IMG/VR virus record: IMGVR_UViG_2698536355_000010
Direction: 5' to 3' (one strand)
Source: a virus
Taxonomy: Duplodnaviria > Heunggongvirae > Uroviricota > Caudoviricetes
Length of the DNA stretch: 39,062 bases
Under the pieces are notes generated by a model. That model was not told where the DNA came from, searched no databases, and was given only the letters and a program-made list of their open reading frames with translations. Every line of letters begins with the position of its first letter. Position 1 is the stretch's first letter. This document shows, piece by piece, positions 935 to 32,633 of the stretch. The translations under genes and the position numbers were made by a program.

Positions 935-2620
935 GTGAATATAAACGTCGCCGAATTGTTAAATGGGAATTACATTCTGTTATTATTTGTGGTCCTCGCG
1001 CTTGGGCTATGTCTCGGAAAGTTACGACTTGGTTCGATCCAACTGGGTAATTCCATTGGCGTTTTAGTCGTATCGCTGTTATTAGGCCAACAACATTTCA
1101 GCATTAACACCGATGCGCTTAATCTTGGCTTTATGCTGTTTATTTTCTGCGTCGGGGTCGAAGCCGGACCGAACTTTTTTTCCATTTTTTTTCGCGATGG
1201 GAAAAATTACCTAATGTTAGCACTGGTGATGGTTGGCAGTGCGCTGGTGATCGCCTTAGGGTTAGGTAAGCTGTTTGGCTGGGATATTGGCCTGACGGCC
1301 GGTATGTTAGCAGGCTCTATGACGTCGACACCGGTTCTGGTCGGTGCTGGCGATACACTGCGTCATTCCGGCATGGAAAGCAGGCAGCTCTCACTGGCAC
1401 TGGATAATCTGAGCCTCGGGTATGCCTTAACCTATTTAATCGGTCTGGTGAGTTTGATTGTTGGTGCGCGTTACTTGCCGAAATTGCAGCATCAGGACTT
1501 ACAGACCAGCGCCCAGCAAATCGCCCGCGAACGTGGCCTGGACACTGATGCCAACCGTAAGGTTTATTTACCGGTGATCCGCGCCTATCGCGTCGGCCCG
1601 GAACTGGTGGCCTGGACCGACGGCAAAAATCTGCGTGAACTGGGTATTTATCGACAAACCGGCTGCTACATTGAACGTATTCGACGTAACGGGATTCTGG
1701 CAAATCCAGACGGTGATGCCGTGCTACAAATGGGCGATGAAATAGCGTTGGTAGGCTATCCCGACGCCCATGCCCGACTCGATCCCAGCTTCCGTAACGG
1801 TAAAGAAGTTTTCGATCGTGACCTTCTCGACATGCGTATCGTCACTGAAGAAGTGGTCGTTAAAAACCATAACGCTGTAGGTAAACGTCTCGCACAACTG
1901 AAGTTGACCGATCACGGTTGCTTCCTTAACCGCGTCATTCGTAGCCAGATTGAGATGCCGATAGATGACAACGTCGTACTTAACAAAGGTGACGTTTTAC
2001 AAGTCAGCGGCGATGCCCGCCGCGTAAAAACCATCGCCGATCGCATCGGCTTTATCTCGATTCACAGCCAGGTCACTGACCTGCTGGCATTCTGCGCCTT
2101 CTTTGTTATTGGGCTGATGATCGGGATGATCACCTTCCAGTTCAGCACATTCAGTTTCGGCATGGGGAACGCTGCCGGGTTGTTATTCGCCGGAATTATG
2201 CTGGGCTTTATGCGTGCTAACCACCCGACCTTCGGTTACATTCCGCAGGGTGCATTAAGCATGGTGAAAGAGTTCGGCTTGATGGTGTTTATGGCAGGCG
2301 TTGGTCTGAGCGCCGGTAGCGGTATTAATAACGGCCTGGGCGCGATTGGCGGTCAGATGTTGATTGCCGGATTGATTGTCAGTCTGGTGCCCGTGGTTAT
2401 CTGTTTCTTGTTCGGTGCTTATGTATTGCGAATGAACCGCGCGCTGTTGTTCGGCGCAATGATGGGCGCACGTACCTGCGCGCCGGCAATGGAGATCATC
2501 AGTGATACAGCTCGCAGTAACATCCCGGCGCTGGGCTATGCGGGCACCTATGCAATCGCCAACGTCCTGCTGACGCTGGCAGGGACAATCATCGTCATGG
2601 TATGGCCAGGATTAGGATAA
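935..2620 (+). CDS. ybjL: putative transporter YbjL (AAE-family permease with central soluble domains)
   Basis: 561-aa ORF with hydrophobic N- and C-terminal halves and a soluble middle; N-terminus [20 protein letters not shown] as remembered for YbjL. Confidence 0.8.
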
Positions 2621-3164: not shown

Positions 3165-4265
3165 TCATTCCATTTCGAAATCATCAATCCTCACTTCAAG
3201 CTCCAGACTGGTCGTAAAACCATTATCCGGGCTGACAGTATGTGTCAGGGTGGTAATGGTCCATTCCGCATCATCTATCGGCTGTTTAAAGCCACTGACC
3301 TTCACAGGCATTTCCGTGTAGAGATCTGCCCGACCTTCCGCCAGTTGTAGCGAGAATGACGCAACACCGCGTTGCAGGCGTTCCCACTGCATTTTCGCCG
3401 CTCGTTCGGCGTTGCTCCGGTTGGCATAAGTGCGATTAAGTACCAGCACGTTTTCATCCGTCCCCACCAGGTAATCGCCCTGCTTCGCTTCCGGCTCTTT
3501 CTTCTGCTTCTTAGTCCTGCGCTTACGCTTCACCGTGGTGCTTTCTTTCTTCGCGGGTTCGCGGGTATGCAACCAGCTGGCAATTACGCCCGTGTAGGCT
3601 CCGCGATCTGCCAGGGTAAAGCGGTGACTGTCGCCGTCCTTCCGTGTGATAGTGATCACCGGCAGTGGTTTACCGCTGGCGCTTTTACCCTGTCCCTGCC
3701 GGATGAATAACAGATTGCCATTTTTCACCGACGCAATAGCACCGTACTGGCGCGCCAGCCGCATCAGAAAACTGCCGTCACTCTCATTGGTCTGGTCTAT
3801 ATGCTCCACGGGTTTATCCGACAGGTCTTCACCCAATGCCATCTTCAGTTTGTGCCGCGCAGCTATTTCCTTCACCACTTCCCCAACGGTGGTCTTGTGC
3901 CACGATTTTTCACGGCGGGTATTCAGGGTTTCACGAAAATCAGCACTTCGCGCCCGGATAGTCAGGCGGTCCGGTGCGCCAGTGTGTTCAATCTCGTCCA
4001 CCGTGAATGCTCCTTTCGGGAAAAGCGGCTGCCCCTTCCAGCCCAGCGCCAGCGTAATGACCGCACCACGGCGCGGCAGCACGATTTTTCCGTCGGCGTC
4101 GTCCAGCTCCAGATCAAGCTGGTCTGCTTCAAAGCCCCGGTTATCCGTCAGCGTCAGCCCCATCAGGCGGTTGTCCAGCACAGTGGTGATATCCCTGCCT
4201 TCAATACTGATGCTGAATGCCGGAGTTTTGTTGCCTTTGTTAAGCAGTTCAGAGCTGAAATTCAC
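3165..4265 (-). CDS. D: tail protein D (late control gene D)
   Basis: 366-aa ORF in the P2 gpD position, last tail gene before ogr; family-level similarity by recollection. Confidence 0.8.
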   Translation of the reverse strand: MNFSSELLNKGNKTPAFSISIEGRDITTVLDNRLMGLTLTDNRGFEADQLDLELDDADGKIVLPRRGAVITLALGWKGQPLFPKGAFTVDEIEHTGAPDRLTIRARSADFRETLNTRREKSWHKTTVGEVVKEIAARHKLKMALGEDLSDKPVEHIDQTNESDGSFLMRLARQYGAIASVKNGNLLFIRQGQGKSASGKPLPVITITRKDGDSHRFTLADRGAYTGVIASWLHTREPAKKESTTVKRKRRTKKQKKEPEAKQGDYLVGTDENVLVLNRTYANRSNAERAAKMQWERLQRGVASFSLQLAEGRADLYTEMPVKVSGFKQPIDDAEWTITTLTHTVSPDNGFTTSLELEVRIDDFEME

Positions 4266-4747
4266 GACAGCAGCCCTCCCACCGTTTTACTGATATCGCT
4301 TAAGGCAGACGTTGCCGTGTCCTGCAGATTATTCAGCTGCGCACTGAGATCACCGAACATATCGGACAGGGATTCATCCACCCGTTTGAGCGACAGAGTG
4401 AACTCAATCCGGCGCGGCATACCGTCGCGGAAAAACTCCGTTTTAGTCTGATTCAGTCCCTCAATCACATACATGCCGTAAATCGTGCCGCTGCCTTCAA
4501 TCAGGGGCCATGCTTTCCCCTGTTCTGCCATCTGCTCAAGTGCCAGCAACGACAGCCTGCCACCTGTTATCTCCGGCATAAGAACACCGGAAAGCGTCAG
4601 CATGTCGTTGTCCGGTCCCAGAAACTGCGTGGACGGACGTCGGTTTACCCGGCTGTTTGCCGCATGTCGCCAGCTGCGTTGATACTGCAGTTCCTGATAC
4701 GGCGCGGTGCGCAGCATAAACACGTACAATCCCAGCACCATCATCAT
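4262..4747 (-). CDS. U: tail protein U
   Basis: 161-aa ORF starting MMMVLGL..., overlaps D start by 4 nt; P2 gpU-like N-terminus and position. Confidence 0.8.
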   Translation of the reverse strand: MMMVLGLYVFMLRTAPYQELQYQRSWRHAANSRVNRRPSTQFLGPDNDMLTLSGVLMPEITGGRLSLLALEQMAEQGKAWPLIEGSGTIYGMYVIEGLNQTKTEFFRDGMPRRIEFTLSLKRVDESLSDMFGDLSAQLNNLQDTATSALSDISKTVGGLLS

Positions 4748-7700
4748 GCGTCGTATCCCCCCTGATCGCTGTAGTTACTCCTGGCTTTTGCCTTCAGCCT
4801 GCGTTCACGTTCATCAAGCTGTCGGGCCACCTCCCGCGCAATATCCTGCGCACTTTGTCCTGGCTGCGTCTGGATGATGATCTGCGTCGGTGCCTCAATC
4901 CGTTGAGCGGGCGGCACAGTGGCTGCACGACTCACCATCGCTTCGCCGCCTTTCGCGGGAAGTGCCAAAGGATGTAACGGCGGAAGCTCTGCAGGCGCGG
5001 CAGCAACGCCCATCATTCCGGCAACAACGGCAGCCAGTGCAGCTGTATTTCTCCGGCTGGTCACATTTGCCGGGCCGTTAACAATTTCCGGCCCGTTCTC
5101 ACCGACAATGCCAAACTGCCCGCGCGGGATATACCCACCGCTGTCATACATCCCCGCAAAACCATATCCCCATGATGGAAAACCACCTGATGGCATCATC
5201 ACTTTACCGTCTGTATTCACCGTCGCAGGTTGCTGACGCGTCACGCTTTCCGGCAGTTTTGCCTTTGCGGCCTCTTTACTGACAATGCCAAGTTTCTCCA
5301 GCAACCAGGAAACGCCGGATTTCAGCGAGTCCAGCGGATGCATGACCATATTCAGCCCTTCCGCCAGCGCCTCCCCGAATCGTCGCCCCATTGCCGCTGC
5401 GCTCTGCAGTTCGGCAGAGGTCGACTTAACGGGCGTCAGCAGATCAGTAAACCAGCCCCACAACGCCTGTACTTTGTCGCCAATCCACTGGAACACGGGC
5501 TTAAGCGGTTCGAATGCAGCACTGATGGGACCTGCCGCCGCTTTGAATCCTTCCACCACGCCACCGAGAAATGCGGTGATGGGTTGCCAGTATTTCCAGA
5601 CAACCAGCGCCACGCCCGCCAGTGCAGTAACCACAAGACCTATCGGACTGAGCAGAGCACCTAACAGACCAGATACGGCATACAGGGCAACGCGCAGCAT
5701 CGCCAGCGGACCGGATGCCAGCACACGCAGCACCGCGCCTGCGGCAGCCAGTCCACCGCGCAGTGCTGCCAGTGGATTCATAAACATCACAGCAACCGCA
5801 CGTAAACCGGATAATCCAGACCGCAAAAGTGCAACCGGCGCACCTGCTACCGTTTTCAGGACATTTCCCGTCAGTGATGTCGTGCGGCGCAAAGACGACA
5901 ACGGCGCAGTAAGTAAACCTGCGGCGTTGCCCGATGAAGCAAGCCCGCGTCGCAGCAGTGCCAGTGGTGCGCCAGCCAGCCAGGACAACGCGCTGCTGGT
6001 TCGAGTTACTGCTGCCGTAACGGAAGGTAACGTTTTGATACCCAGCACAGAGAATCCCAGACGGATCACTGCCAGCGGCCCCAGCACTGCAGCCAGCGCC
6101 ACCGCTAAGGTGCCGAGGCCCACGGTAACGGCAGCCACCACAGCGGCTACTTTCATCAGTGTGCCTGTCAGTTCCGGGTTAGCTTCCACCCAGCGACGCA
6201 ACGCCCCTGTGACGCTTTTCACCGTGTACAGAATATCCATCAGCGGCTGGCGCAGCGTTTCGCCCAGGCTGCTGAAGGTGTTCTGTGCTCCGGTTTTGAC
6301 CAGCAACCACTGCGCAGAAAGTGAATCCTTGTTGATGTCGGATTCTTTCTGCATGGAGCCGAGCGCATCATTGCCCGCTGTCAGTTTTAACTGACGCTGC
6401 AGTTCCGGCAGGTTGTTTGCCAGTTTCGCCGCGTCATCGCCAAACTCTTTACCAAACAACATGGTCATGGCAGACAGACGCTTATCCTGCGGCAGTGCGT
6501 TCACCTTCTCCAGCACGCGCTGGATGGTTCCCATCGCATCCTTCGTCATCTGCTTTTCAATCACTTCAGGATTGAGTTTCAGCAGATTCATCCCTTCAAA
6601 GAAACTCTTGCTTTGCATGGTGGCAATGGACAATTCACGCACCATCGCGTTTGCTGCACTGGCTGCAACCTCTGGCGCAGCGCCCAGTGTAAGGAAGGTG
6701 GAACCCAGCGCCGCCGCTTTACGATAATCCAGACGATCAGCCACACCGCCCAGACGTTGCATGACATCAATGATGTCTGCCCCTTTCGACATGGCGTTAT
6801 CATCCAGATAGTTCAGCGCATCACCGAGCTGTTCAATATTGCGGGTAGGGATTTTGTAGAGTTGGGCGATTTTCCCCAGACTTTCTGACAGTTCATCCGC
6901 AGGCAACTCAAAGGCTGTTGCCGCCTTTGCTGCCGTGCTGGCGAAGGCCAGCAGATCACGTTTCTGGTCTTCCCAGCTGTCGTCAGGGTTTGCGATGTTC
7001 ATGCGCGCACCACCTTCAACCAGTGCGGCGAAGTCCACCGCACCGTTTTCCATCGGCAACTGTTCGCTGGCAGCTTTGATGGCATCCTGCATTTCATAAA
7101 AACGTGCAGTGCGGTTGCCATTATCGTCACGCAGACCATTGACCTGCTTTGCCACACCTTTCATGGCATCTTCCATGCTGGTATAGCTTTTTACTGCCGC
7201 CATCACTGGCGTCCCCATTGCCAGCCCTGCAGCCGTGGTGGTGGCTCCGGCTCCTGCGATGCGATCGCGCACCTCCAGAGAACGAGCATAACTGGCACGC
7301 GCTGCATTCATCCTGCGCTGAGCTTCCCCCAGTCGCTTCAGCCGCGCCTCCTGTTTCGACAGTTCCTGGTTATAACGTGATGTTTCACGGGCTAAACGGG
7401 CAGTTGCTCCCGCATCATCTTTCGCAGAAATTCCCGCCCGGTACAGTTCTGCACGCACAAGCGCCGTTTGCTTCTGCAAATATTTTTGTTGTTCTTCCAG
7501 GCGTTGGACTGCCAGCGTTTGCCGACCTAAAGCCACAAGGTGCCGTTGTGATGGTTGTTCCATCGACTCCAGCTCAGAGCTAAGCAAATTAGCCTTCTGT
7601 CTGGCATAGTTCAGCCTGTCGCCTAACTTCTTGTTATCGACCTGCAGCTTGCGAAATTTTTCCAGGCTGTTACCCGCCTGATTGAGTTGCTTTAATGCGT

Positions 7701-7821
7701 CACGGGAGTTTCTGATTGCGCCAGCCAGCTCTTTCGAACTGGCCTGTGCAGCACGGAATGGGCGGGTGAGTTTGTCAACCGCATTAAGAATGACCTGCAG
7801 GCGCAGGTTATTATCACTCAT
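4744..7821 (-). CDS. T: tail tape measure protein
   Basis: 1025-aa ORF, coiled-coil N-terminal third, Ala/Gly-rich hydrophobic middle, positioned between E/E' and U. Confidence 0.85.
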   Translation of the reverse strand: MSDNNLRLQVILNAVDKLTRPFRAAQASSKELAGAIRNSRDALKQLNQAGNSLEKFRKLQVDNKKLGDRLNYARQKANLLSSELESMEQPSQRHLVALGRQTLAVQRLEEQQKYLQKQTALVRAELYRAGISAKDDAGATARLARETSRYNQELSKQEARLKRLGEAQRRMNAARASYARSLEVRDRIAGAGATTTAAGLAMGTPVMAAVKSYTSMEDAMKGVAKQVNGLRDDNGNRTARFYEMQDAIKAASEQLPMENGAVDFAALVEGGARMNIANPDDSWEDQKRDLLAFASTAAKAATAFELPADELSESLGKIAQLYKIPTRNIEQLGDALNYLDDNAMSKGADIIDVMQRLGGVADRLDYRKAAALGSTFLTLGAAPEVAASAANAMVRELSIATMQSKSFFEGMNLLKLNPEVIEKQMTKDAMGTIQRVLEKVNALPQDKRLSAMTMLFGKEFGDDAAKLANNLPELQRQLKLTAGNDALGSMQKESDINKDSLSAQWLLVKTGAQNTFSSLGETLRQPLMDILYTVKSVTGALRRWVEANPELTGTLMKVAAVVAAVTVGLGTLAVALAAVLGPLAVIRLGFSVLGIKTLPSVTAAVTRTSSALSWLAGAPLALLRRGLASSGNAAGLLTAPLSSLRRTTSLTGNVLKTVAGAPVALLRSGLSGLRAVAVMFMNPLAALRGGLAAAGAVLRVLASGPLAMLRVALYAVSGLLGALLSPIGLVVTALAGVALVVWKYWQPITAFLGGVVEGFKAAAGPISAAFEPLKPVFQWIGDKVQALWGWFTDLLTPVKSTSAELQSAAAMGRRFGEALAEGLNMVMHPLDSLKSGVSWLLEKLGIVSKEAAKAKLPESVTRQQPATVNTDGKVMMPSGGFPSWGYGFAGMYDSGGYIPRGQFGIVGENGPEIVNGPANVTSRRNTAALAAVVAGMMGVAAAPAELPPLHPLALPAKGGEAMVSRAATVPPAQRIEAPTQIIIQTQPGQSAQDIAREVARQLDERERRLKAKARSNYSDQGGYDA

Positions 7822-8250
7822 CGTTGGCCCCGCTTCTCTGAATCGCTTTATACCGCCATTCCAGCACTTCGGTCAGCGGCATAACGTCAGTAACGGATGG
7901 CGGCCAGTGAAAGATGGTGGCAATATCTGCCACCAGATCGTCAACCGTCAGGCTGTCGGTAAACCGGCAAGCACCGACTTCTTCAACAAAAAAGTGACAA
8001 CCTCAACCGACATGGCAGTGAGATCTGCCGGGTCCATCTCTGCAATTTCCTGTGCGGTCAGTGCCGGGCTGGAGATGCGGGGGATCACGGTCATCATCGC
8101 GTTCACATCCATATCCATAATGGCCTGCAGGCGTGTACCGCGCAGCGCACCGGACTGCGGTTTACGCAGCACAATTTCGGTGATTTCTGTTTTACCGCGC
8201 TTGATAGGGGTATCCAGTTGAATGGTCTTTTCAGTCTGCTTATCGCTCAT
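7814..8250 (-). CDS. E+E' fusion product via programmed -1 frameshift
   Basis: Slippery heptamer TTTTTTG on minus strand (plus coords 7987..7993). Manual translation of the -1 frame from 7987 gives VEEVGACRFTDSLTVDDLVADIATIFHWPPSVTDVMPLTEVLEWRYKAIQRSGANDE with no stops until TGA at 7814..7816, overlapping the T start as in P2. Confidence 0.6.
7948..8250 (-). CDS. E: tail assembly chaperone E
   Basis: 100-aa acidic ORF immediately upstream of T; contains slippery T_TTT_TTG in codons 86-88. Confidence 0.8.
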   Translation of the reverse strand: MSDKQTEKTIQLDTPIKRGKTEITEIVLRKPQSGALRGTRLQAIMDMDVNAMMTVIPRISSPALTAQEIAEMDPADLTAMSVEVVTFLLKKSVLAGLPTA

Positions 8251-8304
8251 TTTGCTGTCCTGTAAATTGGGTTCTGGCGCGGTATCCCGCGCCGTTCAGA
8301 TACA

Positions 8305-8820
8305 TCAGAGGCCGAGGGCGTTGCGGTGCGCTTCCATCAGGTCCACACCGTCCACAATTTCCACCATGTTGATAAGGTCCACTTCATAGAGCACCTCACC
8401 ATTGATGGTCAGCTTCGCGTAGCTGTTGGTACTGGTCACTTTGGTGGTGTTGCTTTCGCCCGTCTTCCACTCACCGGAATCCACTTCTTTGTGACGTCCA
8501 CGCACCACAAGCTCCACGGCCTGCACTTCCCCGGTATCGTCACGCTGGATAGAGCCGGTAAAGCGCAGCTGGATGCCATCCACCGTGGCTTTGCCCATCT
8601 GCTTAAACAGCAGCAGTTCAGTACCACCAATGGAAAATTCTGTGTCCAGCGCACTGTCATCAAGCCCCAGATCCACATCCACTGCCCCCGGCATTCCGCC
8701 GCCGCGATACTTCTCATATTTGCGGGTGAATTTCGGCAGCGTCAGCGACTCAACGATCCCCTGCCAGTTGTTCCCGTCGTTAAACAGGTTCAGGTGTTTT
8801 AATTTGCGTGGTAAAGCCAT
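8305..8820 (-). CDS. FII: major tail tube protein FII
   Basis: 171-aa ORF, position and size of P2 gpFII downstream of sheath gene. Confidence 0.85.
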   Translation of the reverse strand: MALPRKLKHLNLFNDGNNWQGIVESLTLPKFTRKYEKYRGGGMPGAVDVDLGLDDSALDTEFSIGGTELLLFKQMGKATVDGIQLRFTGSIQRDDTGEVQAVELVVRGRHKEVDSGEWKTGESNTTKVTSTNSYAKLTINGEVLYEVDLINMVEIVDGVDLMEAHRNALGL

Positions 8821-8829
8821 GTTGTCCCC

Positions 8830-10002
8830 TTACGCGCTGACCTGGCTGGCGAAATTCACCAGGTACTGATCGGTGATGCGCTGACGCAACATCAGGTTTT
8901 CAAGTGGCGGCACTGGCGTGTAGTCGTAGTCGATGGTGAGTTTTCCGGCTTTCAGAGTGTCTTTGTCGTTCACCGACTCGTCCAGCCAGCAATCACCACC
9001 AATGAGATACCCCTGACTGACCAGGCTGCGCATTTTGGCGCGGATGCCCTCGATAATGTCGCGCGCCAGCGACGGGTTCAGCGGTTTGTCCACTGCCCAC
9101 ATGTGTGCTTCTGCCATCGTGTCCATCAGCACCTGCGCCGTGCGGGTGTAGTTTTCGAAGGCAAAGAGCGGGTCATCACTCAGGCAGCGGGAACCCCAGA
9201 AGCGGAAACCGTCTTTGCGGATAAGGGTGGTGACGTCGTTCTGGTTCAGCAGTCCAGCATCGGTTGCCGTGTCCTGCAGATCCCAGAACACATCAGCAGA
9301 AATTCCAGTGACACCGTTAACGCCCACATTGGACAGGCTTTTGTGCCATCCGGTCTGATCATCAATTTTGGCACGCAGACCAAGCGCACGGGCGGTGGCA
9401 TAAGCCGTTGCTTCGGCATTCAGCACCGTGTCCCAGCCAGTAAAGTCAGGCCAGATCAGCATCCCTTCGCGCTGGCTGAAGTTTTCGCGGTAAGTGATCG
9501 CCTCCTGCACAGTCTTGCAGCCATACGCTGACAGGTAAGCAAACCCACGCAGGCTTTGCGCCACGCCCAGCAACTCAGTAGCTACCGCCTTGGTGTCGTG
9601 GCCTGGCACGCCGAGAATGCGCGGTTTAACGCCGAGCTGTGACTGGGCAGATAACAGGGCTTTCATACCTGTTTTTTTACCTTCAGCAGTCACTGCGCCG
9701 ATGATATTGGTCGTGGTTTCTTCTTCCGTTTCACCCTGCGGCACACGCACAACAACGGTCACGGGTTTTGCCTGGTCAGCGATGGCATCCAGCGAACGGG
9801 CCAGCGTGCCGGACTCACCCGCTTTACCGCTGGCAGTCAGCACATCAGTGATCAGCACGGGTTTATTAAGAGGAAACATTTTTGCATCGGCATCATCGCC
9901 CGTGCAGACCATACCCACGATGGCGGTGCTCACCGTGGTAATGGATCGGGTGCCTTCGTTGACTTCAACAACGCGCACCCCGTGGTGGTAATCCTGAGCC
10001 AT
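8830..10002 (-). CDS. FI: tail sheath protein FI
   Basis: 390-aa ORF, P2 gpFI-like, first gene of F operon. Confidence 0.85.
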
Positions 10003-10144: not shown

Positions 10145-10711
10145 TCAGGGAGATTCATTGCTCTTATTTGCCGGAAATTTTCTATAAATGGTAGAAACGC
10201 CTACATCAAAAATCAGTGCAATACGCAGTCTTGATTCTCCGGCCTCGAGTAAACGTCCAATCTGTGCCCACTGTTCGGTGGTCAACTTAGGACGGCGTCC
10301 ACCTACTCTGCCTTTAGCACGAGCTGCAGCCAGCCCTGCCCTGGTACGTTCAACTATCAGTTCGCGTTCCATTTCAGCCAGGGCACCCATGACATGAAAA
10401 AAGAAACGGCCCATTGGGGTACTGGTATCAATACTGTCAGTCAGGCTTCTGAAATTCACACCACGCTGGCGCAACTCTTCTATCAGCGTAACAAGATGCC
10501 GCATACTGCGCCCCAACCTGTCCAGCTTCCAGACAACCAGCGTGTCTCCTGCCGATAGTGTCCTGAGCAGTTTTTTCAGCCCCGGTCTGTCGGACTTAGT
10601 GCCACTGATTTTATCCTCAAAAATCCGCTCACATCCCGCGCAGTTCAGTGCATTACGTTGCAAATCGGTGTTCTGGTCATTTGTTGACACGCGTACATAG
10701 CCAATAAGCAT
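10145..10711 (-). CDS. serine-recombinase DNA invertase (Gin/Hin/Pin/Cin family)
   Basis: N-terminus MLIGYVRVSTNDQNTDLQRNAL with catalytic Ser motif and C-terminal HTH; start set at third ATG (10711) which has GGGGGA 5 nt upstream. Confidence 0.9.
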   Translation of the reverse strand: MLIGYVRVSTNDQNTDLQRNALNCAGCERIFEDKISGTKSDRPGLKKLLRTLSAGDTLVVWKLDRLGRSMRHLVTLIEELRQRGVNFRSLTDSIDTSTPMGRFFFHVMGALAEMERELIVERTRAGLAAARAKGRVGGRRPKLTTEQWAQIGRLLEAGESRLRIALIFDVGVSTIYRKFPANKSNESP

Positions 10712-10738
10712 GATCATCCCCCTGAATAAAAACCGGAG

Positions 10739-11248
10739 ATGATGCCAGTTAGCCGTAATCTCTGCATTTTCTTAAACGTTGGTTTGGGAGAAACGATAAA
10801 TAAAGCCTCCGGAGCTATGCAGAAATCGGCCAATGGATCTGATATTTCTGATGTATCAGCCTTCCGAAATGCGCTCCAGTTAGGGACCGCCGCAACACGA
10901 GATGTTGGAGCAGATAATGCCTCGAAGTTACTGGATTTAGACAGCTTCAGGTCAATGATGTCAGGGAATGGCTACATCTACATTCCATGCATTGCGACGA
11001 CAGGAAACCCGGTGAAACTTATGTTGCAGTGGGGAACGGTGGCAACACAAAAGGGAGCTGATGCTGGATATGCCTTACCATTTGCTTTTCCCTATGCAGG
11101 CTTATTTGCGACCGGAAACCGTGGAACATCTGGCTACAATGCCGCGATGAATGTGCGTATTGCCAGCAGAACGCATATCAGTATTCAGAACTGGTCGCCA
11201 TCCGGAGAGGGCACCGAAGATTGTTGTTTTATCGCGCTGGGGTATTAA
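10739..11248 (+). CDS. alternative tail-fibre C-terminal segment (Sv'-like), expressed only after inversion
   Basis: ORF on opposite strand to H ending ...CCFIALGY (H ends ...HFEAIGY); shares A-x-x-RDVG block with H; likely lacks its own start and is read only when fused to the H constant region after inversion. Confidence 0.65.
   Translation: MMPVSRNLCIFLNVGLGETINKASGAMQKSANGSDISDVSAFRNALQLGTAATRDVGADNASKLLDLDSFRSMMSGNGYIYIPCIATTGNPVKLMLQWGTVATQKGADAGYALPFAFPYAGLFATGNRGTSGYNAAMNVRIASRTHISIQNWSPSGEGTEDCCFIALGY
10767..10792. repeat. candidate invertase crossover site (gix/hix-like), right
   Basis: ttttcttaaacg-tt-ggtttgggagaa fits TTnTCnAAAACC-nn-GGTTTTnGAnAA half-site pattern at 17 of 20 defined positions; 56 bp upstream of invertase start. 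Confidence 0.5.
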
Positions 11249-11250
11249 GA

Positions 11251-11661
11251 ATGAATAAATTTTATAAAGGCTCTTTCTATCCGAAAGCACTAAAAGGGGT
11301 ATATATCAGCGCCGGTTCATGGCCTGAAAATGGCGTTGATGTTGATGATGAAACAATGGCAATTTACACAGGCGTAGCGCCACAAGGCAAAACGCTGGGG
11401 GCTGATAAAAATGGTAATCCTGCGTGGATTGATATCCCGCCACTCTCCGCTGAACAACAGATTATTCAGGCTGAACAGAAAAGAACAGTATTGCGTTCTA
11501 TGGCTGATAAGGAAATAGTCTGGAGACAGGATGCTTTTGATGCGGAAATCGCGACGGCAGAAGAAACCGCCGCGTTATCTGAATGGAAAAAATACCGGGT
11601 CTTGCTGATGCGCGTTGATACAGCAAAACCCGTATGGCCTGTCAATCCGCAGGATATTTAA
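11251..11661 (+). CDS. tail fibre assembly protein (Tfa'/U'-like)
   Basis: Starts MNKFYKGSFYP; C-terminus EWKKYRVLLMRVDTAKPVWPVNP is the conserved Tfa C-terminal motif. Confidence 0.8.
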   Translation: MNKFYKGSFYPKALKGVYISAGSWPENGVDVDDETMAIYTGVAPQGKTLGADKNGNPAWIDIPPLSAEQQIIQAEQKRTVLRSMADKEIVWRQDAFDAEIATAEETAALSEWKKYRVLLMRVDTAKPVWPVNPQDI

Positions 11662-11877: not shown

Positions 11878-13362
11878 TTAGTATCCTATTGCTTCAAAAT
11901 GCAGTGTCGGTGTTTCGCCGAGATTGGGTGTCGTATACGCCACAGTGAATCGCGTTCTTGATACGTCAGCGCCAGAATCAGTATCGCGATGCGTTGACAG
12001 TGATTTTCCGGCCATTGTTGTCTGTTTCGAAAACTCTGAGCTCGCTAGTGTTGCCAGCGTTGCTATTTGTGCATTTGGGAATTGTCTGGGGAAATTAACC
12101 CTGTAGTAATGGGTGTAGTACGTCACCCCACCAAGCACCTGCGCGTTGAAGTTACCAACTGGTGTCAGTGTCACAGTGCCAGCCTGTCGAATCATACCAT
12201 TTGGGAGAATATCCCAGGCAGTTTGTCCGTTTCGCGACATACCAAATGCGGACATGTCCGGGAGTTGATTATTACCGGTTCCGACATCCCGTTTTGCCGC
12301 TTCTCCCAATTGAAGGTATGCGAGAAGACCAGCTACATCCTTTCCACTCAAATTAGTCAGCGTATTGTCCAGCGGTTGTTTACCTGCCAGCGCATTAAGC
12401 ATTGTCGTGGCAAAGTTCGGATCATTCCCCAGTGCCGCCGCCAGTTCGTTCAGTGTATCCAGTGCAGCAGGTGCAGAACCCACCATTGCCGCAATCGCCG
12501 ATTTCACAAAAGCCGTGGTGGCAATCTGTGTATTGTTGACCGACTGTGCCGCAGTAGGTGCTGTTGGCGTTCCGGTGAGTGCCGGACTCGACAACGGCGC
12601 TTTCAGTGCCAGCGCATTGTTAATGGTGGTACTGAAATTCGGATCATTGTTAATGGCTGCGGCTATTTCTTTTAGCGTGTCCAGCGTGGCTGGCGCACCA
12701 TTAATAAGGGCCGTCAGTGCCGCCTGAACAAACGCGGTGGTCGCAACCTGCGTGGTGTTATTCCCTGCCGCTGGCGTTGGCGCTTTGGGGGTTCCGGTAA
12801 ATGTCGGGCTGGCTTTTGGCGCATACTGTGAATGTGGGTCCTGTGCGGCAAGATGTTTTGCCATCAGGTCATCCACGTACACTTTCAGCTCCAGTACCTT
12901 GTCATCCACATACTTGCGGGTTGCCAGCACTACGGCAGGGTCGATTTTCAGGGTGATATTGTCCGTGCTGCTGGTAATCAGCACCATGCGCACGGTCTGG
13001 GTGCGCCCGCTGCCTTCAGCCAGTTGCGGCTTATAGCTTTCCGGGCAGTTGCCCACGGCAATCAATGCTCCGGACTCATCAAACAGGCCCACTTCACGTA
13101 TCCACCAACCGCCCTCGTTTTCAGGGATCACCTGTTCAGCAATAATCTGGCTGCTGTTCTGCGGGTCGATATAGAGCATATTCAGCGCAGCCCGGCGTTT
13201 CTCATTTACCAGTGCAGTCTGCTTTGCGTCCGGCGTTGGCAATGTCCCTCCGCCATCGCCGACCGCCATATGGGTAATTTTTAAAGGCACACCGAGCGCG
13301 GCGGCGCTGGCAAGTTTCGCCGCGCCAATATCCGTCAGCAGGGTATAAAATTTTGTGCTCAT
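11878..13362 (-). CDS. H: tail fibre protein H
   Basis: 494-aa ORF; N-terminal roughly 330 aa resemble P2 gpH (MAVGDGGG, AESYKP...AEGSGR, NELAAALGNDPNFATTM), C-terminal part divergent. Confidence 0.85.
   Translation of the reverse strand: MSTKFYTLLTDIGAAKLASAAALGVPLKITHMAVGDGGGTLPTPDAKQTALVNEKRRAALNMLYIDPQNSSQIIAEQVIPENEGGWWIREVGLFDESGALIAVGNCPESYKPQLAEGSGRTQTVRMVLITSSTDNITLKIDPAVVLATRKYVDDKVLELKVYVDDLMAKHLAAQDPHSQYAPKASPTFTGTPKAPTPAAGNNTTQVATTAFVQAALTALINGAPATLDTLKEIAAAINNDPNFSTTINNALALKAPLSSPALTGTPTAPTAAQSVNNTQIATTAFVKSAIAAMVGSAPAALDTLNELAAALGNDPNFATTMLNALAGKQPLDNTLTNLSGKDVAGLLAYLQLGEAAKRDVGTGNNQLPDMSAFGMSRNGQTAWDILPNGMIRQAGTVTLTPVGNFNAQVLGGVTYYTHYYRVNFPRQFPNAQIATLATLASSEFSKQTTMAGKSLSTHRDTDSGADVSRTRFTVAYTTPNLGETPTLHFEAIGY
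12311..12336. repeat. candidate invertase crossover site, left (inside H)
   Basis: Minus-strand ttctcgcatacc-tt-caattgggagaa matches the right site at 18 of 26 positions (9-bp block ttgggagaa identical), at the same position relative to the RDVG block. Confidence 0.35.
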
Positions 13363-30218: not shown

Positions 30219-32633
30219 TTAATACAGGTTCCGCCACTTATCATCTTCCTGCAAACGCTGGTTCCGATAGAAGATACGCAGGCCTGCTCCTGACGGAATA
30301 CTGCCACCGCGAAGGAGCAAATCGACCTCTTTCTCGCTGCCATCAAATCCTCTGGACTTCAGTTCATAGACGAGCTGCTGACGCTGATACTCTGTAATTC
30401 GCTGTTTGTAGTCTTTACGCCGTTTCGGTTTAACCAGGCGTAATCTTGCTGCCAGTTCCCGGCGCTCTTTTTTGCTCATACTGTGCAGGTAATCGTGCAA
30501 CTCCTTGTCATCCATGCGGGTGATATCCGTTCTGGTATCCCCATCAGCTGATTTGTCTTTCCCTTGTTGGTTCAAATTTTCAGCAAGGGGACAGTTATTG
30601 CCACGAGTCCAAGGGGCGCAAGCGCCCTGGTCGGCTGCCGCCTCCTGAACGTCAACGGCTTTACGAACCATTTTCCACTTCACTGCATGAGTGCAGATCT
30701 TGCCCTCTGCAATGGGTGACCAGATGCCATAAATACGAATGCCGTGATCGCCATAGGCGGTCGGCTCTTCGTTGATTTCATAAGCGGTTCTGATGAGGTG
30801 ATATTTACGGGGAACCAGTACGCCGCCCTGCTTCATGATGTAGGTGGCAAAACAACCAGCATCAGCAGCAGCCAGAATGGCATCAAGGCGCGGGTTATCC
30901 AGTACCGGCGCACCTGCTTTTTTGTCACCCTGTTGCCTTGCCGCCTGACCAGCCAGCAAGCGAAGTTCACGGTAAGCCTGACGCCCCGGAATACCAAAGA
31001 AGCGGAATTGCTGAACACGATGCAGAGACGCCCAGGCATTCACGTATTCAGCGTTATCACGCAGAGATTTACCCGTTTCCTTGCTGATCTCGCCAGCCAG
31101 ACCACGACCGTCAATGTTCTTACTGATATATTTCGCGATGTAGCTTGTCGGCGTTCCTTTGCGCGGGTTAATCAACTCAGACTTAAAGCGCGGCCCAGTG
31201 TTATTGCCCAGCTCCTCGCGGTCTTCACGGATGGCAAACTTACGCAGTAATGCAGTGATGGCACGGCGGTCTTTTTTGCGCATGAAACACAACAGGTGCC
31301 AGTGAACTGTGCCATCATGATGCGGCTCAGCCACCCGCACGCCATACCAGCGCAACCCGGCTTTGTGCATCGCCTTACGAAATGCAGCAAACATGCCGAC
31401 CAGATAATCGCTGCTTTGTCTTACCGTCGCGTTTGTCCAGGTCGGGTTTGGTCTGCCGTTATTTAGCGTGGAATGGAAACGCGACGGACAGGTGATAGTG
31501 TAGAAAACGGCGCAGTCACCGCGCATTTCCGCGATAAGCTCCAGACCTTTAACACAGGCCATCATCTCATTGCGGCGATGCGCAGGGTTGCTGCTGCTGG
31601 CGTTTACCACATCCTCCATGTCCAGCGTGTCGCCGTCTTCGTTCACCAGTTCATGAGAACGGAAAAACTCCAGCGACTTACGGCGCTGCTCACGTTTATG
31701 CATCACGGCTTCATAGCTGACATAAGGAGATGCTTTTTTGCTGACCAGGCAAACAGCGCGCAACTGCTCTTCCCGCCATTCGCAACGCATCTTCCATAAT
31801 TTCCGATACCACCAGTCGGCGCACAACATACGCGCCAGCGAACCCGGAATGAGTTCATAGGGCACGGGTTTACGGCGGTTTCTTTTCCGGCGGAGTTGCT
31901 CAAACGCAGGTGGGATGACATCCAGACGCAGGGTTTCCGCTGCCACCTTTTCCCATGTCTTGCGGATTTCTTCTGGCTTAACGTCATCGGTGGCATACAA
32001 ATCACCACAAGCTGCATCAAGGCACATACTCATATGCGCAGCTACCAGGGTGGACAGGCGTTTCACCTGATCCTGACTCATTTCAGGCAGGATCAGCAGG
32101 CCGTCCAGCCCTTCATGGCTTGCCATAAAGCGAAAAGATGCAGATAGCTGACTGTCGCGTACATGCTCCAGTCGTTCCAGACATGGCTTAATCGTCTCAC
32201 GTAAATAGCGGGAATAAGCCTTTGGCCTGCCCAGGCTGCTGAAGTATTCAATACGTTGCATCAGCGGCTTGCTGATATGGGAAGGCTGGGCGTTGACGTC
32301 CGCCAGAATGACCATGTCTGAATTAAAACGCTGCTGCTCATGCGCCAGCTTTGCCCGGCTAATGAGCTTATCCTGCTCCATTTCGCGCTGGACAGGATCA
32401 CGTGATTCATTAAAGAAATAACGCTCCCAGACCTGATCACTCAGTGCCTCGCGGCGCAACTGTTCCTGCTCGTTATCGGCAGCGTACAGAGTGATCAGGT
32501 TTGAAAGCGTAGAAACCGGCGCAACTTCCGCCGGGTCCAGATAAGGGTTAATGGCCTTTTTCGGGCTGTTCCATGAGAATGCTGCGGCAGCCTCGTTAAA
32601 GCCGCAGCAGTTGTTCATATCGGCATGACTCAT
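30219..32633 (-). CDS. A: replication initiation endonuclease A (rolling-circle)
   Basis: 804-aa ORF, P2/186 gpA-like size and position. Confidence 0.85.

Follow-up and report, generated by a model that had tools for sequence, protein, structure and literature searches.

The stretch of 39,062 nucleotides (nt) analysed here, the virus record IMGVR_UViG_2698536355_000010 of IMG/VR (Caudoviricetes; hereafter the window), carries the tail operon of a P2-like prophage of Escherichia coli (E. coli) on its minus strand. The site under study, near the end of the tail gene E, is very probably the programmed -1 ribosomal frameshift through which this P2-family prophage (Peduoviridae, Elveevirus-like) would make both the short product E and the longer product E+E'. 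This assignment, drawn from sequence comparisons, is supported by the protein families of E and of its extension, the collinearity with P2, the conservation of both the frame and the heptamer, and the synteny of the operon. It agrees with a preliminary description of this DNA, in which a programmed -1 frameshift producing E+E' had been proposed. The sequence contains everything that tandem -1 slippage requires, in the following elements:

8250..7948, minus strand: gene E, tail assembly chaperone, with a zero-frame product of 100 amino acids (list of open reading frames and translation, from ATG to the TGA at 7950..7948).
7993..7987, minus strand: slippery heptamer T_TTT_TTG, formed by the third base of codon 86 and by codons 87 and 88 of E (read from the sequence).
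7814..7987, minus strand: E', the -1 frame extension, with 57 sense codons at 7987..7817 and a TGA at 7816..7814 (translation).
join(8250..7987, 7987..7814), minus strand: deduced coding sequence (CDS) of the E+E' fusion, 145 amino acids (alignment of 20 fusions and alignment with P2).
8005..8003, minus strand: TGA in the -1 frame, three codons before the heptamer, upstream limit of the zone of productive shift (stop-to-stop analysis).

Positions 7987..7993 read CAAAAAA on the plus strand, that is TTTTTTG on the coding strand, and the zero-frame codons of E at this point are ACT (codon 86, 7995..7993), TTT (codon 87) and TTG (codon 88), giving the phasing T_TTT_TTG. Translation of the -1 frame from position 7993 yields FFVEEVGACRFTDSLTVDDLVADIATIFHWPPSVTDVMPLTEVLEWRYKAIQRSGANDE followed by a stop (FFVEEVGACRF...SGANDE). 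The preliminary description had placed the heptamer over codons 86-88 of E and had stated that the -1 frame is open for 57 codons up to a TGA overlapping the start of the tape measure gene T. Both statements were borne out by the sequence and the codon phasing: the TGA is located in ATGAGTGA, 8 nt into gene T, whose ATG lies at 7821..7819, and E' and T therefore overlap by 8 nt. Because of the -1-frame TGA at 8005..8003, the E' frame opens at 8002 and a productive shift is confined to the 55-nt zone in which E' and E overlap (8002..7948), where T_TTT_TTG is the sole in-frame X_XXY_YYZ motif.

As far as it can be judged from sequence, the locus displays the layout, the homologies and the slippery heptamer that define the E/E+E' system of phage P2 (Christie et al. 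2002). The E and E' frames overlap each other and are placed between the tube gene FII and the tape measure gene T, within a complete operon whose gene order, FI-FII-E-E'-T-U-D in a Pfam scan of the window proteins, is that of the P2 FETUD operon. The heptamer T_TTT_TTG occupies the position homologous to that in P2, where the tail assembly chaperone (TAC) domain ends, the extension has 57 codons as in P2, and the 8-nt overlap between the E' stop and the T start is also shared with P2 and is identical in L-413C and Wphi. The 145-amino-acid fusion is collinear with the 142-amino-acid E+E' protein of P2, with 49% identity over 139 amino acids and no gap across the junction (E = 3e-51), and the 57-residue extension is 56% identical to its P2 and L-413C counterparts. 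In P2, the shift on TTTTTTG yields an E protein of 91 amino acids and an E+E' protein of 142 amino acids, and P2-like phages have retained this shift (PMC3091744, with reference to Christie 2002 and Xu 2004). The present phage, in contrast, belongs to a different genus, its E protein has 100 amino acids, 12 zero-frame codons of E follow the heptamer instead of 6, and the stop codon of E' is TGA instead of TAA. The earlier claim that this is exactly the P2 arrangement thus holds for the layout, the heptamer, the 57-codon extension and the overlap with T, but not for the length of E or the number of zero-frame codons after the heptamer.

The protein families of the two parts of the fusion were determined separately. 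Protein E matched the Pfam family PF10109 Phage_TAC_7 (E = 1e-18, 67.5 bits against a cut-off of 25), which is described in Pfam as 'tail assembly chaperone proteins, E, or 41 or 14', and its name in RefSeq is 'phage tail assembly protein'. The 57-amino-acid extension alone matched PF06528 Phage_P2_GpE (E = 4e-19, 68 bits against a cut-off of 23). Both parts also matched tail proteins in PHROG, E being assigned to PHROG 103 'tail protein' (4e-44) and E' to PHROG 1756 (2e-22). Nothing beyond Phage_TAC_7 and Phage_P2_GpE was found when E, the fusion and E' were scanned against Pfam (E <= 0.01); the NCBIfam scan of E and the fusion returned no family, and a PDB sequence search with the fusion (E <= 1) returned no solved relative. 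A comparison of the extension with annotated E' proteins, as suggested in the preliminary description, led to the P2 GpE family and to records with a joined E+E' CDS.

The extension is widely conserved. A tblastn search with it retrieved 351 phage records, so that a lack of conservation in related phages, named beforehand as a result that would speak against the frameshift, was not observed. A comparative set of 58 loci (20 phage and 38 prophage loci, 55 distinct sequences) was compiled, in which the phage loci span P2, phiCTX, Burkholderia, Mannheimia, Vibrio, Halomonas and Zymomonas elements, and the prophage loci came from a single-protein scan of genome contigs with one genome per species, which produced 38 full loci from different Enterobacterales. 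In all of them (20/20 phage and 38/38 prophage loci) the frame of E' is -1 with respect to that of E, and in the records of L-413C, Wphi, PSP3 and Burkholderia phage KS5 a joined E+E' CDS with the same geometry is annotated as a -1 frameshift. Every phage locus has an in-frame X_XXY_YYZ heptamer in the overlap zone, which is TTTTTTG in 15 of the 20 and TTTTTTC, TTTTTTT, GGGAAAG or CCCTTTC in the rest. These heptamers share one column, at ...V.FL, in a multiple alignment of the 20 fusions that includes P2. In all 38 prophage loci the homologous site reads T_TTT_TT[G/A] and the extension has about 57 codons, in most cases with ATGAGTGA at its end. Considering the distinct related sequences, TTTTTT[G/A/C/T] is present at the homologous column in 51 of 55.

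Some variation was also recorded within this set. T_TTT_TTA replaces T_TTT_TTG in several enterobacterial species (seven loci), a second in-frame heptamer, T_TTC_CCG, is found nearer the E stop in two prophage loci, and in four prophage loci the ATGAGTGA overlap is lost and E' is longer by 1-2 codons. The region itself shares 98-99% identity with Escherichia phage Cartapus (Peduoviridae, Elveevirus) and Klebsiella phage 4LV2017, several E. coli chromosomes match it at 100%, and a copy is present in 1005 of the 5426 complete E. coli genomes (~18%).

Signatures of selection were analysed by counting substitutions relative to the window sequence. Downstream of the E stop, 174 synonymous and 81 non-synonymous substitutions were obtained in the -1 frame, compared with 41/223 and 26/235 in the two remaining frames, a pattern of purifying selection in the -1 frame. 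The six T's of the heptamer are invariant among 23 distinct sequences of the same geometry, while variation is seen at 74 of the 85 third positions in E. Immediately ahead of the heptamer, the zero-frame codon specifies nine different amino acids across the lineages, yet its third base is always the one that the heptamer requires (T for all T-type heptamers), and this argues for selection acting on the nucleotides and not on the protein. In addition, no -1-frame stop occurs in the 331 linker codons between the heptamer and the conserved domain of E' in 16 diverse lineages (P ~6e-8, for an upstream -1-frame stop density of 4.9% per codon and with the lineages treated as independent).

Under the frameshift reading, the events at this site would proceed as in the characterised systems. 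Most ribosomes would translate the 100 amino acids of E and terminate at 7950..7948, and a minority would pause on U_UUU_UUG with tRNA-Phe on UUU in the P site and tRNA-Leu on UUG in the A site. Both tRNAs would then slip one base back, from UUU_UUG to UUU_UUU, and GUU would be read next, giving ...VVTFL-VEEVG.... Reading would continue for 57 codons in the -1 frame to produce a protein of 145 amino acids, composed of E residues 1-88 plus E' and ending 8 nt inside T, with a predicted fusion junction ...VVTFLVEEVG... that would be spanned by the peptide ...SVEVVTFLVEEVGACR.... By analogy with P2 and with the G/GT system of lambda, E and E+E' would be made from one start codon in a fixed ratio. 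Also by analogy with lambda G/GT (PMC5009743), the shared N-terminal part may bind the tape measure protein and the E' domain may recruit the tube subunit, and neither E nor E+E' would be expected in the finished virion. We infer the slippage at this locus, its efficiency, its tRNA-level mechanism and the chaperone roles of the products from these analogies. In P2 itself, the efficiency of the frameshift is reportedly about 10%, and E' is said to be essential, according to Christie and co-workers.

Several observations weigh against a programmed frameshift at this site. The bare heptamer is not rare, with 18 copies of TTTTTTG on the two strands of the window. In the 39-nt overlap of E and E' after the heptamer (7948..7986), the substitutions favour the zero frame, with 19 synonymous and 10 non-synonymous changes, compared with 5/26 in the -1 frame. 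A downstream hairpin, GUCGGU...ACCGAC, 8 nt past the heptamer, has an energy of -13.5 kcal/mol and a z value of -1.5, and 15 of 200 shuffled sequences were as good. An Rfam scan of positions 7600..8400 (E <= 1) gave no match. Finally, in the public annotation of sequences that equal or nearly equal this one (RefSeq/PGAP for E. coli JSMCR1 and other strains, phage Cartapus, CP019275), E' is a separate CDS of 39 amino acids that starts at GTG 7933.

Concerning the first of these points, a -1 frame open for 57 codons is also expected by chance with a probability of about 0.065, from (61/64)^57; the site is set apart from chance by its phasing, by its position and by what its extension is homologous to, and not by the heptamer or the open frame alone. 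The zero-frame bias of the substitutions in the overlap indicates that E' begins with a linker of about twelve residues under loose constraint. In this overlap E has a longer zero-frame tail (LKKSVLAGLPTA, 7948..7986) than in P2, and this tail seems to be under selection.

The public annotation corresponds to the alternative that survives best, according to which E' is an independent small gene, initiated at GTG 7933 (ATG in P2) and encoding a free GpE-family peptide of 39 amino acids, with the heptamer being incidental. The start codon in question is the following:

7931..7933, minus strand: GTG, annotated in RefSeq and Cartapus records as the start of a separate 39-amino-acid 'GpE family phage tail protein' CDS (7814..7933).

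This alternative is very unlikely. The codon aligned to GTG 7933 is GTG or ATG in 50 of the 55 distinct sequences, but it is ATT, ATC, GTT or TGG in five lineages, and these retain both the heptamer and the open -1 frame. The PF06528 model, with 37 positions, spans just the part of E' from GTG 7933 on, whereas conserved acidic residues (V-D/E-D/E) are encoded upstream of the GTG-aligned codon. The weak constraint on the -1 frame immediately past the heptamer would also fit a separate gene, but the frame between the heptamer and the GTG is uninterrupted in the 331 linker codons mentioned above, and the heptamer is kept at the nucleotide level despite the differing amino acid contexts. Moreover, the anti-Shine-Dalgarno (anti-SD) energy upstream of GTG 7933 is weak, -2.5 kcal/mol compared with -4.0 kcal/mol for E and -7.0 kcal/mol for T. 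In P2, the fusion has reportedly been demonstrated by Christie and co-workers, who are said to have described E' as lacking an initiation site of its own, which also counts against a separate gene. The separate 39-amino-acid CDS is thus probably a systematic mis-annotation, GTG 7933 being an internal Val codon of E+E', and some free 39-amino-acid peptide may also be made.

Transcriptional slippage, in which RNA polymerase would drop one U or add two on the T6 run and generate a minority of frameshifted mRNAs, is less likely still. The shift site is indeed a homopolymeric run of six T, but appreciable transcriptional slippage in E. coli usually needs runs of 8-9 or more, and six is shorter. Bacterial genes with longer A/T runs are known to show realignment of this kind (PMC5009743). 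The strict X_XXY_YYZ phasing to the E frame is conserved, a property needed for ribosomal and not for polymerase slippage, and some relatives use G_GGA_AAG or C_CCT_TTC, which are slippery heptamers for tandem tRNA slippage and not homopolymers; this conserved codon phasing and the non-homopolymeric heptamers make transcriptional slippage unlikely. The idea of a functionless coincidence, in which a common T-rich heptamer happens to lie beside a fortuitously open frame, finds some basis in the 18 copies of TTTTTTG and in 8 further coincidences of an open reading frame, a heptamer and an extension in the window, but its probability is negligible given the Pfam match of the extension (4e-19), its presence in 351 phage records and the coding pattern of substitutions in the -1 frame, and given that the other mechanical candidates fall in antisense or alternative-frame open reading frames inside known genes. 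Those 8 other candidates, obtained in a mechanical scan of the window, were rejected as antisense or alternative-frame open reading frames in recognised genes or as host DNA; they include candidates inside gpA (30219..32633) and antisense to FI.

Possible stimulators of the programmed ribosomal frameshift were searched for on both sides of the heptamer. The downstream hairpin was rejected in this role, since it is no better than shuffled sequences and is unconserved across the relatives and the P2 group; an apparent compensatory change in it was seen in ST11-OXA245phi3.1. No stable stem-loop or pseudoknot of the dnaX type was therefore retained 5-9 nt after the heptamer. This null result agrees with the published reports, in which no hairpin is described for P2, KS5, KS14 and KL3 (PMC3091744). 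On the upstream side, the following element was found:

8004..8001 (within 7994..8008), minus strand: Shine-Dalgarno (SD)-like GAGG, 7 nt upstream of the heptamer, candidate 5' stimulator (anti-SD energy -6.3 kcal/mol).

In the relatives, this SD-like element appears as GAGGTGGT or AAGGTGGT. The anti-SD energy at this place is -5 kcal/mol or lower in 49 of the 55 distinct relatives (89%), compared with 4% of control windows, and in the positional profile the strongest anti-SD peak is located at -18..-12, with a second peak at -60. When synonymous codons were resampled, the observed mean was -5.77 kcal/mol compared with -4.63 kcal/mol (50 of 2000 resamples as low, p ~0.025), and the fraction at or below -5 kcal/mol was 0.72 compared with 0.44 (6 of 2000, p ~0.003). 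This amino-acid-controlled excess is modest; most of the enrichment follows from the encoded E/K-V-V residues, and the SD-like element as a stimulator is a weak lead. It is rather doubtful, although worth considering, that the E genes of the P2 family carry a conserved internal SD-like element (GAGGT(GGT) or AAGGTGGT, about 7 nt upstream of T_TTT_TTG) that acts as a dnaX-like 5' stimulator. A limited literature search found no report of such a stimulator in P2-type E genes. Were it true, the element could explain, without any downstream structure, why P2 and related phages shift frame with an efficiency 2- to 3-fold above that of lambda G/GT (PMC5009743).

The site was also compared with two other well-known -1 frameshifts. 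It resembles that of E. coli dnaX (A_AAA_AAG, with an upstream SD element and a downstream hairpin) in the predicted tandem -1 slippage on X_XXY_YYZ and in the SD-like GAGG upstream. The dnaX SD element lies about 10 nt upstream of its heptamer, and the SD-like element of the present locus lies 7 nt upstream; the downstream hairpin is not significant here, and the function is unrelated. In the G/GT system of lambda the heptamer is G_GGA_AAG. Its likeness to the present locus consists in two overlapping open reading frames between the tube and tape measure genes, a -1 shift late in the first one, and two products with a common N-terminus in a fixed ratio (PMC5009743, PMC3091744), the shift and the products being predicted for the present locus; the reference works on this system are those of Levin, Hendrix and Casjens 1993 and of Xu, Hendrix and Duda 2004, 2013 and 2014. 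In contrast, a lower efficiency is reported in lambda (PMC5009743), the tail of lambda is non-contractile while that encoded here is contractile, and no sequence similarity to G/GT was detectable with Pfam. The lambda system is thus a functional analogue of E/E+E' and not a member of the same sequence family.

The other genes of the tail operon, all of them on the minus strand, are the following:

8830..10002, minus strand: gene FI, tail sheath, first in the FETUD-type operon (Pfam Phage_sheath_1 and Phage_sheath_1C).
8305..8820, minus strand: gene FII, tail tube, directly upstream of E (Pfam Phage_tube, 9e-60).
4744..7821, minus strand: gene T, tape measure, 1025 amino acids, ATG at 7821..7819 (list of open reading frames; Pfam PhageMin_Tail, 2e-18); annotated as tape measure protein in relatives.
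4747..4262, minus strand: gene U (Pfam Phage_P2_GpU, 2e-44).
4265..3165, minus strand: gene D (Pfam Phage_GPD, 3e-27), which together with U completes the operon (3165..4747).

Just beyond gene D, a host-type gene is located on the plus strand (935..2620), encoding an Asp-Al_Ex permease with TrkA_C domains, and one end of the prophage should therefore fall between about 2620 and 3165. Copies of TTTTTTG were found at 2647 and 2770, in this host/prophage junction region. On the other side of the operon, the interval from the sheath gene to gene H for the tail fibre (11878..13362, minus strand) holds a gene for a serine DNA invertase (10145..10717, minus strand; Resolvase and HTH_7 domains). The invertase gene adjoins a second cassette for a tail-fibre C-terminus (10739..11248, plus strand; Gp53-like_C), beside which a likely assembly gene is found (11221..11661, plus strand). 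No perfect inverted repeats of at least 18 nt were present around the invertase gene, where only imperfect inverted matches were detected, at about 10888-10918 and 12270-12301, both encoding LQLG.AA.RDVG. The segment 10145..13362 looks like an invertible host-range segment of the Mu/P1 style, and to our knowledge P2 itself has none. A circular sequence of 37,446 bp, CP019275.1, which was deposited as the E. coli 'plasmid p13P477T-2', is 99% identical to the region and has the P2-like tail operon as well; it may represent either a phage-plasmid or the circularised genome of a phage that was taken for a plasmid at assembly.

Taken as a whole, the locus is an already known kind of element, a textbook recoding site, in a very common E. 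coli prophage. Its practical value lies in annotation, since RefSeq and several phage records list E' as an open reading frame of 39 amino acids and not as a ribosomal-slippage CDS of 145 amino acids, a probable error that would concern about 1000 complete E. coli genomes, and the set of 58 loci provides a clean benchmark for frameshift predictors. The biological weight of the finding is small, and the question that it raises is likewise a small one, namely whether the upstream SD-like element tunes the ratio of E to E+E'.

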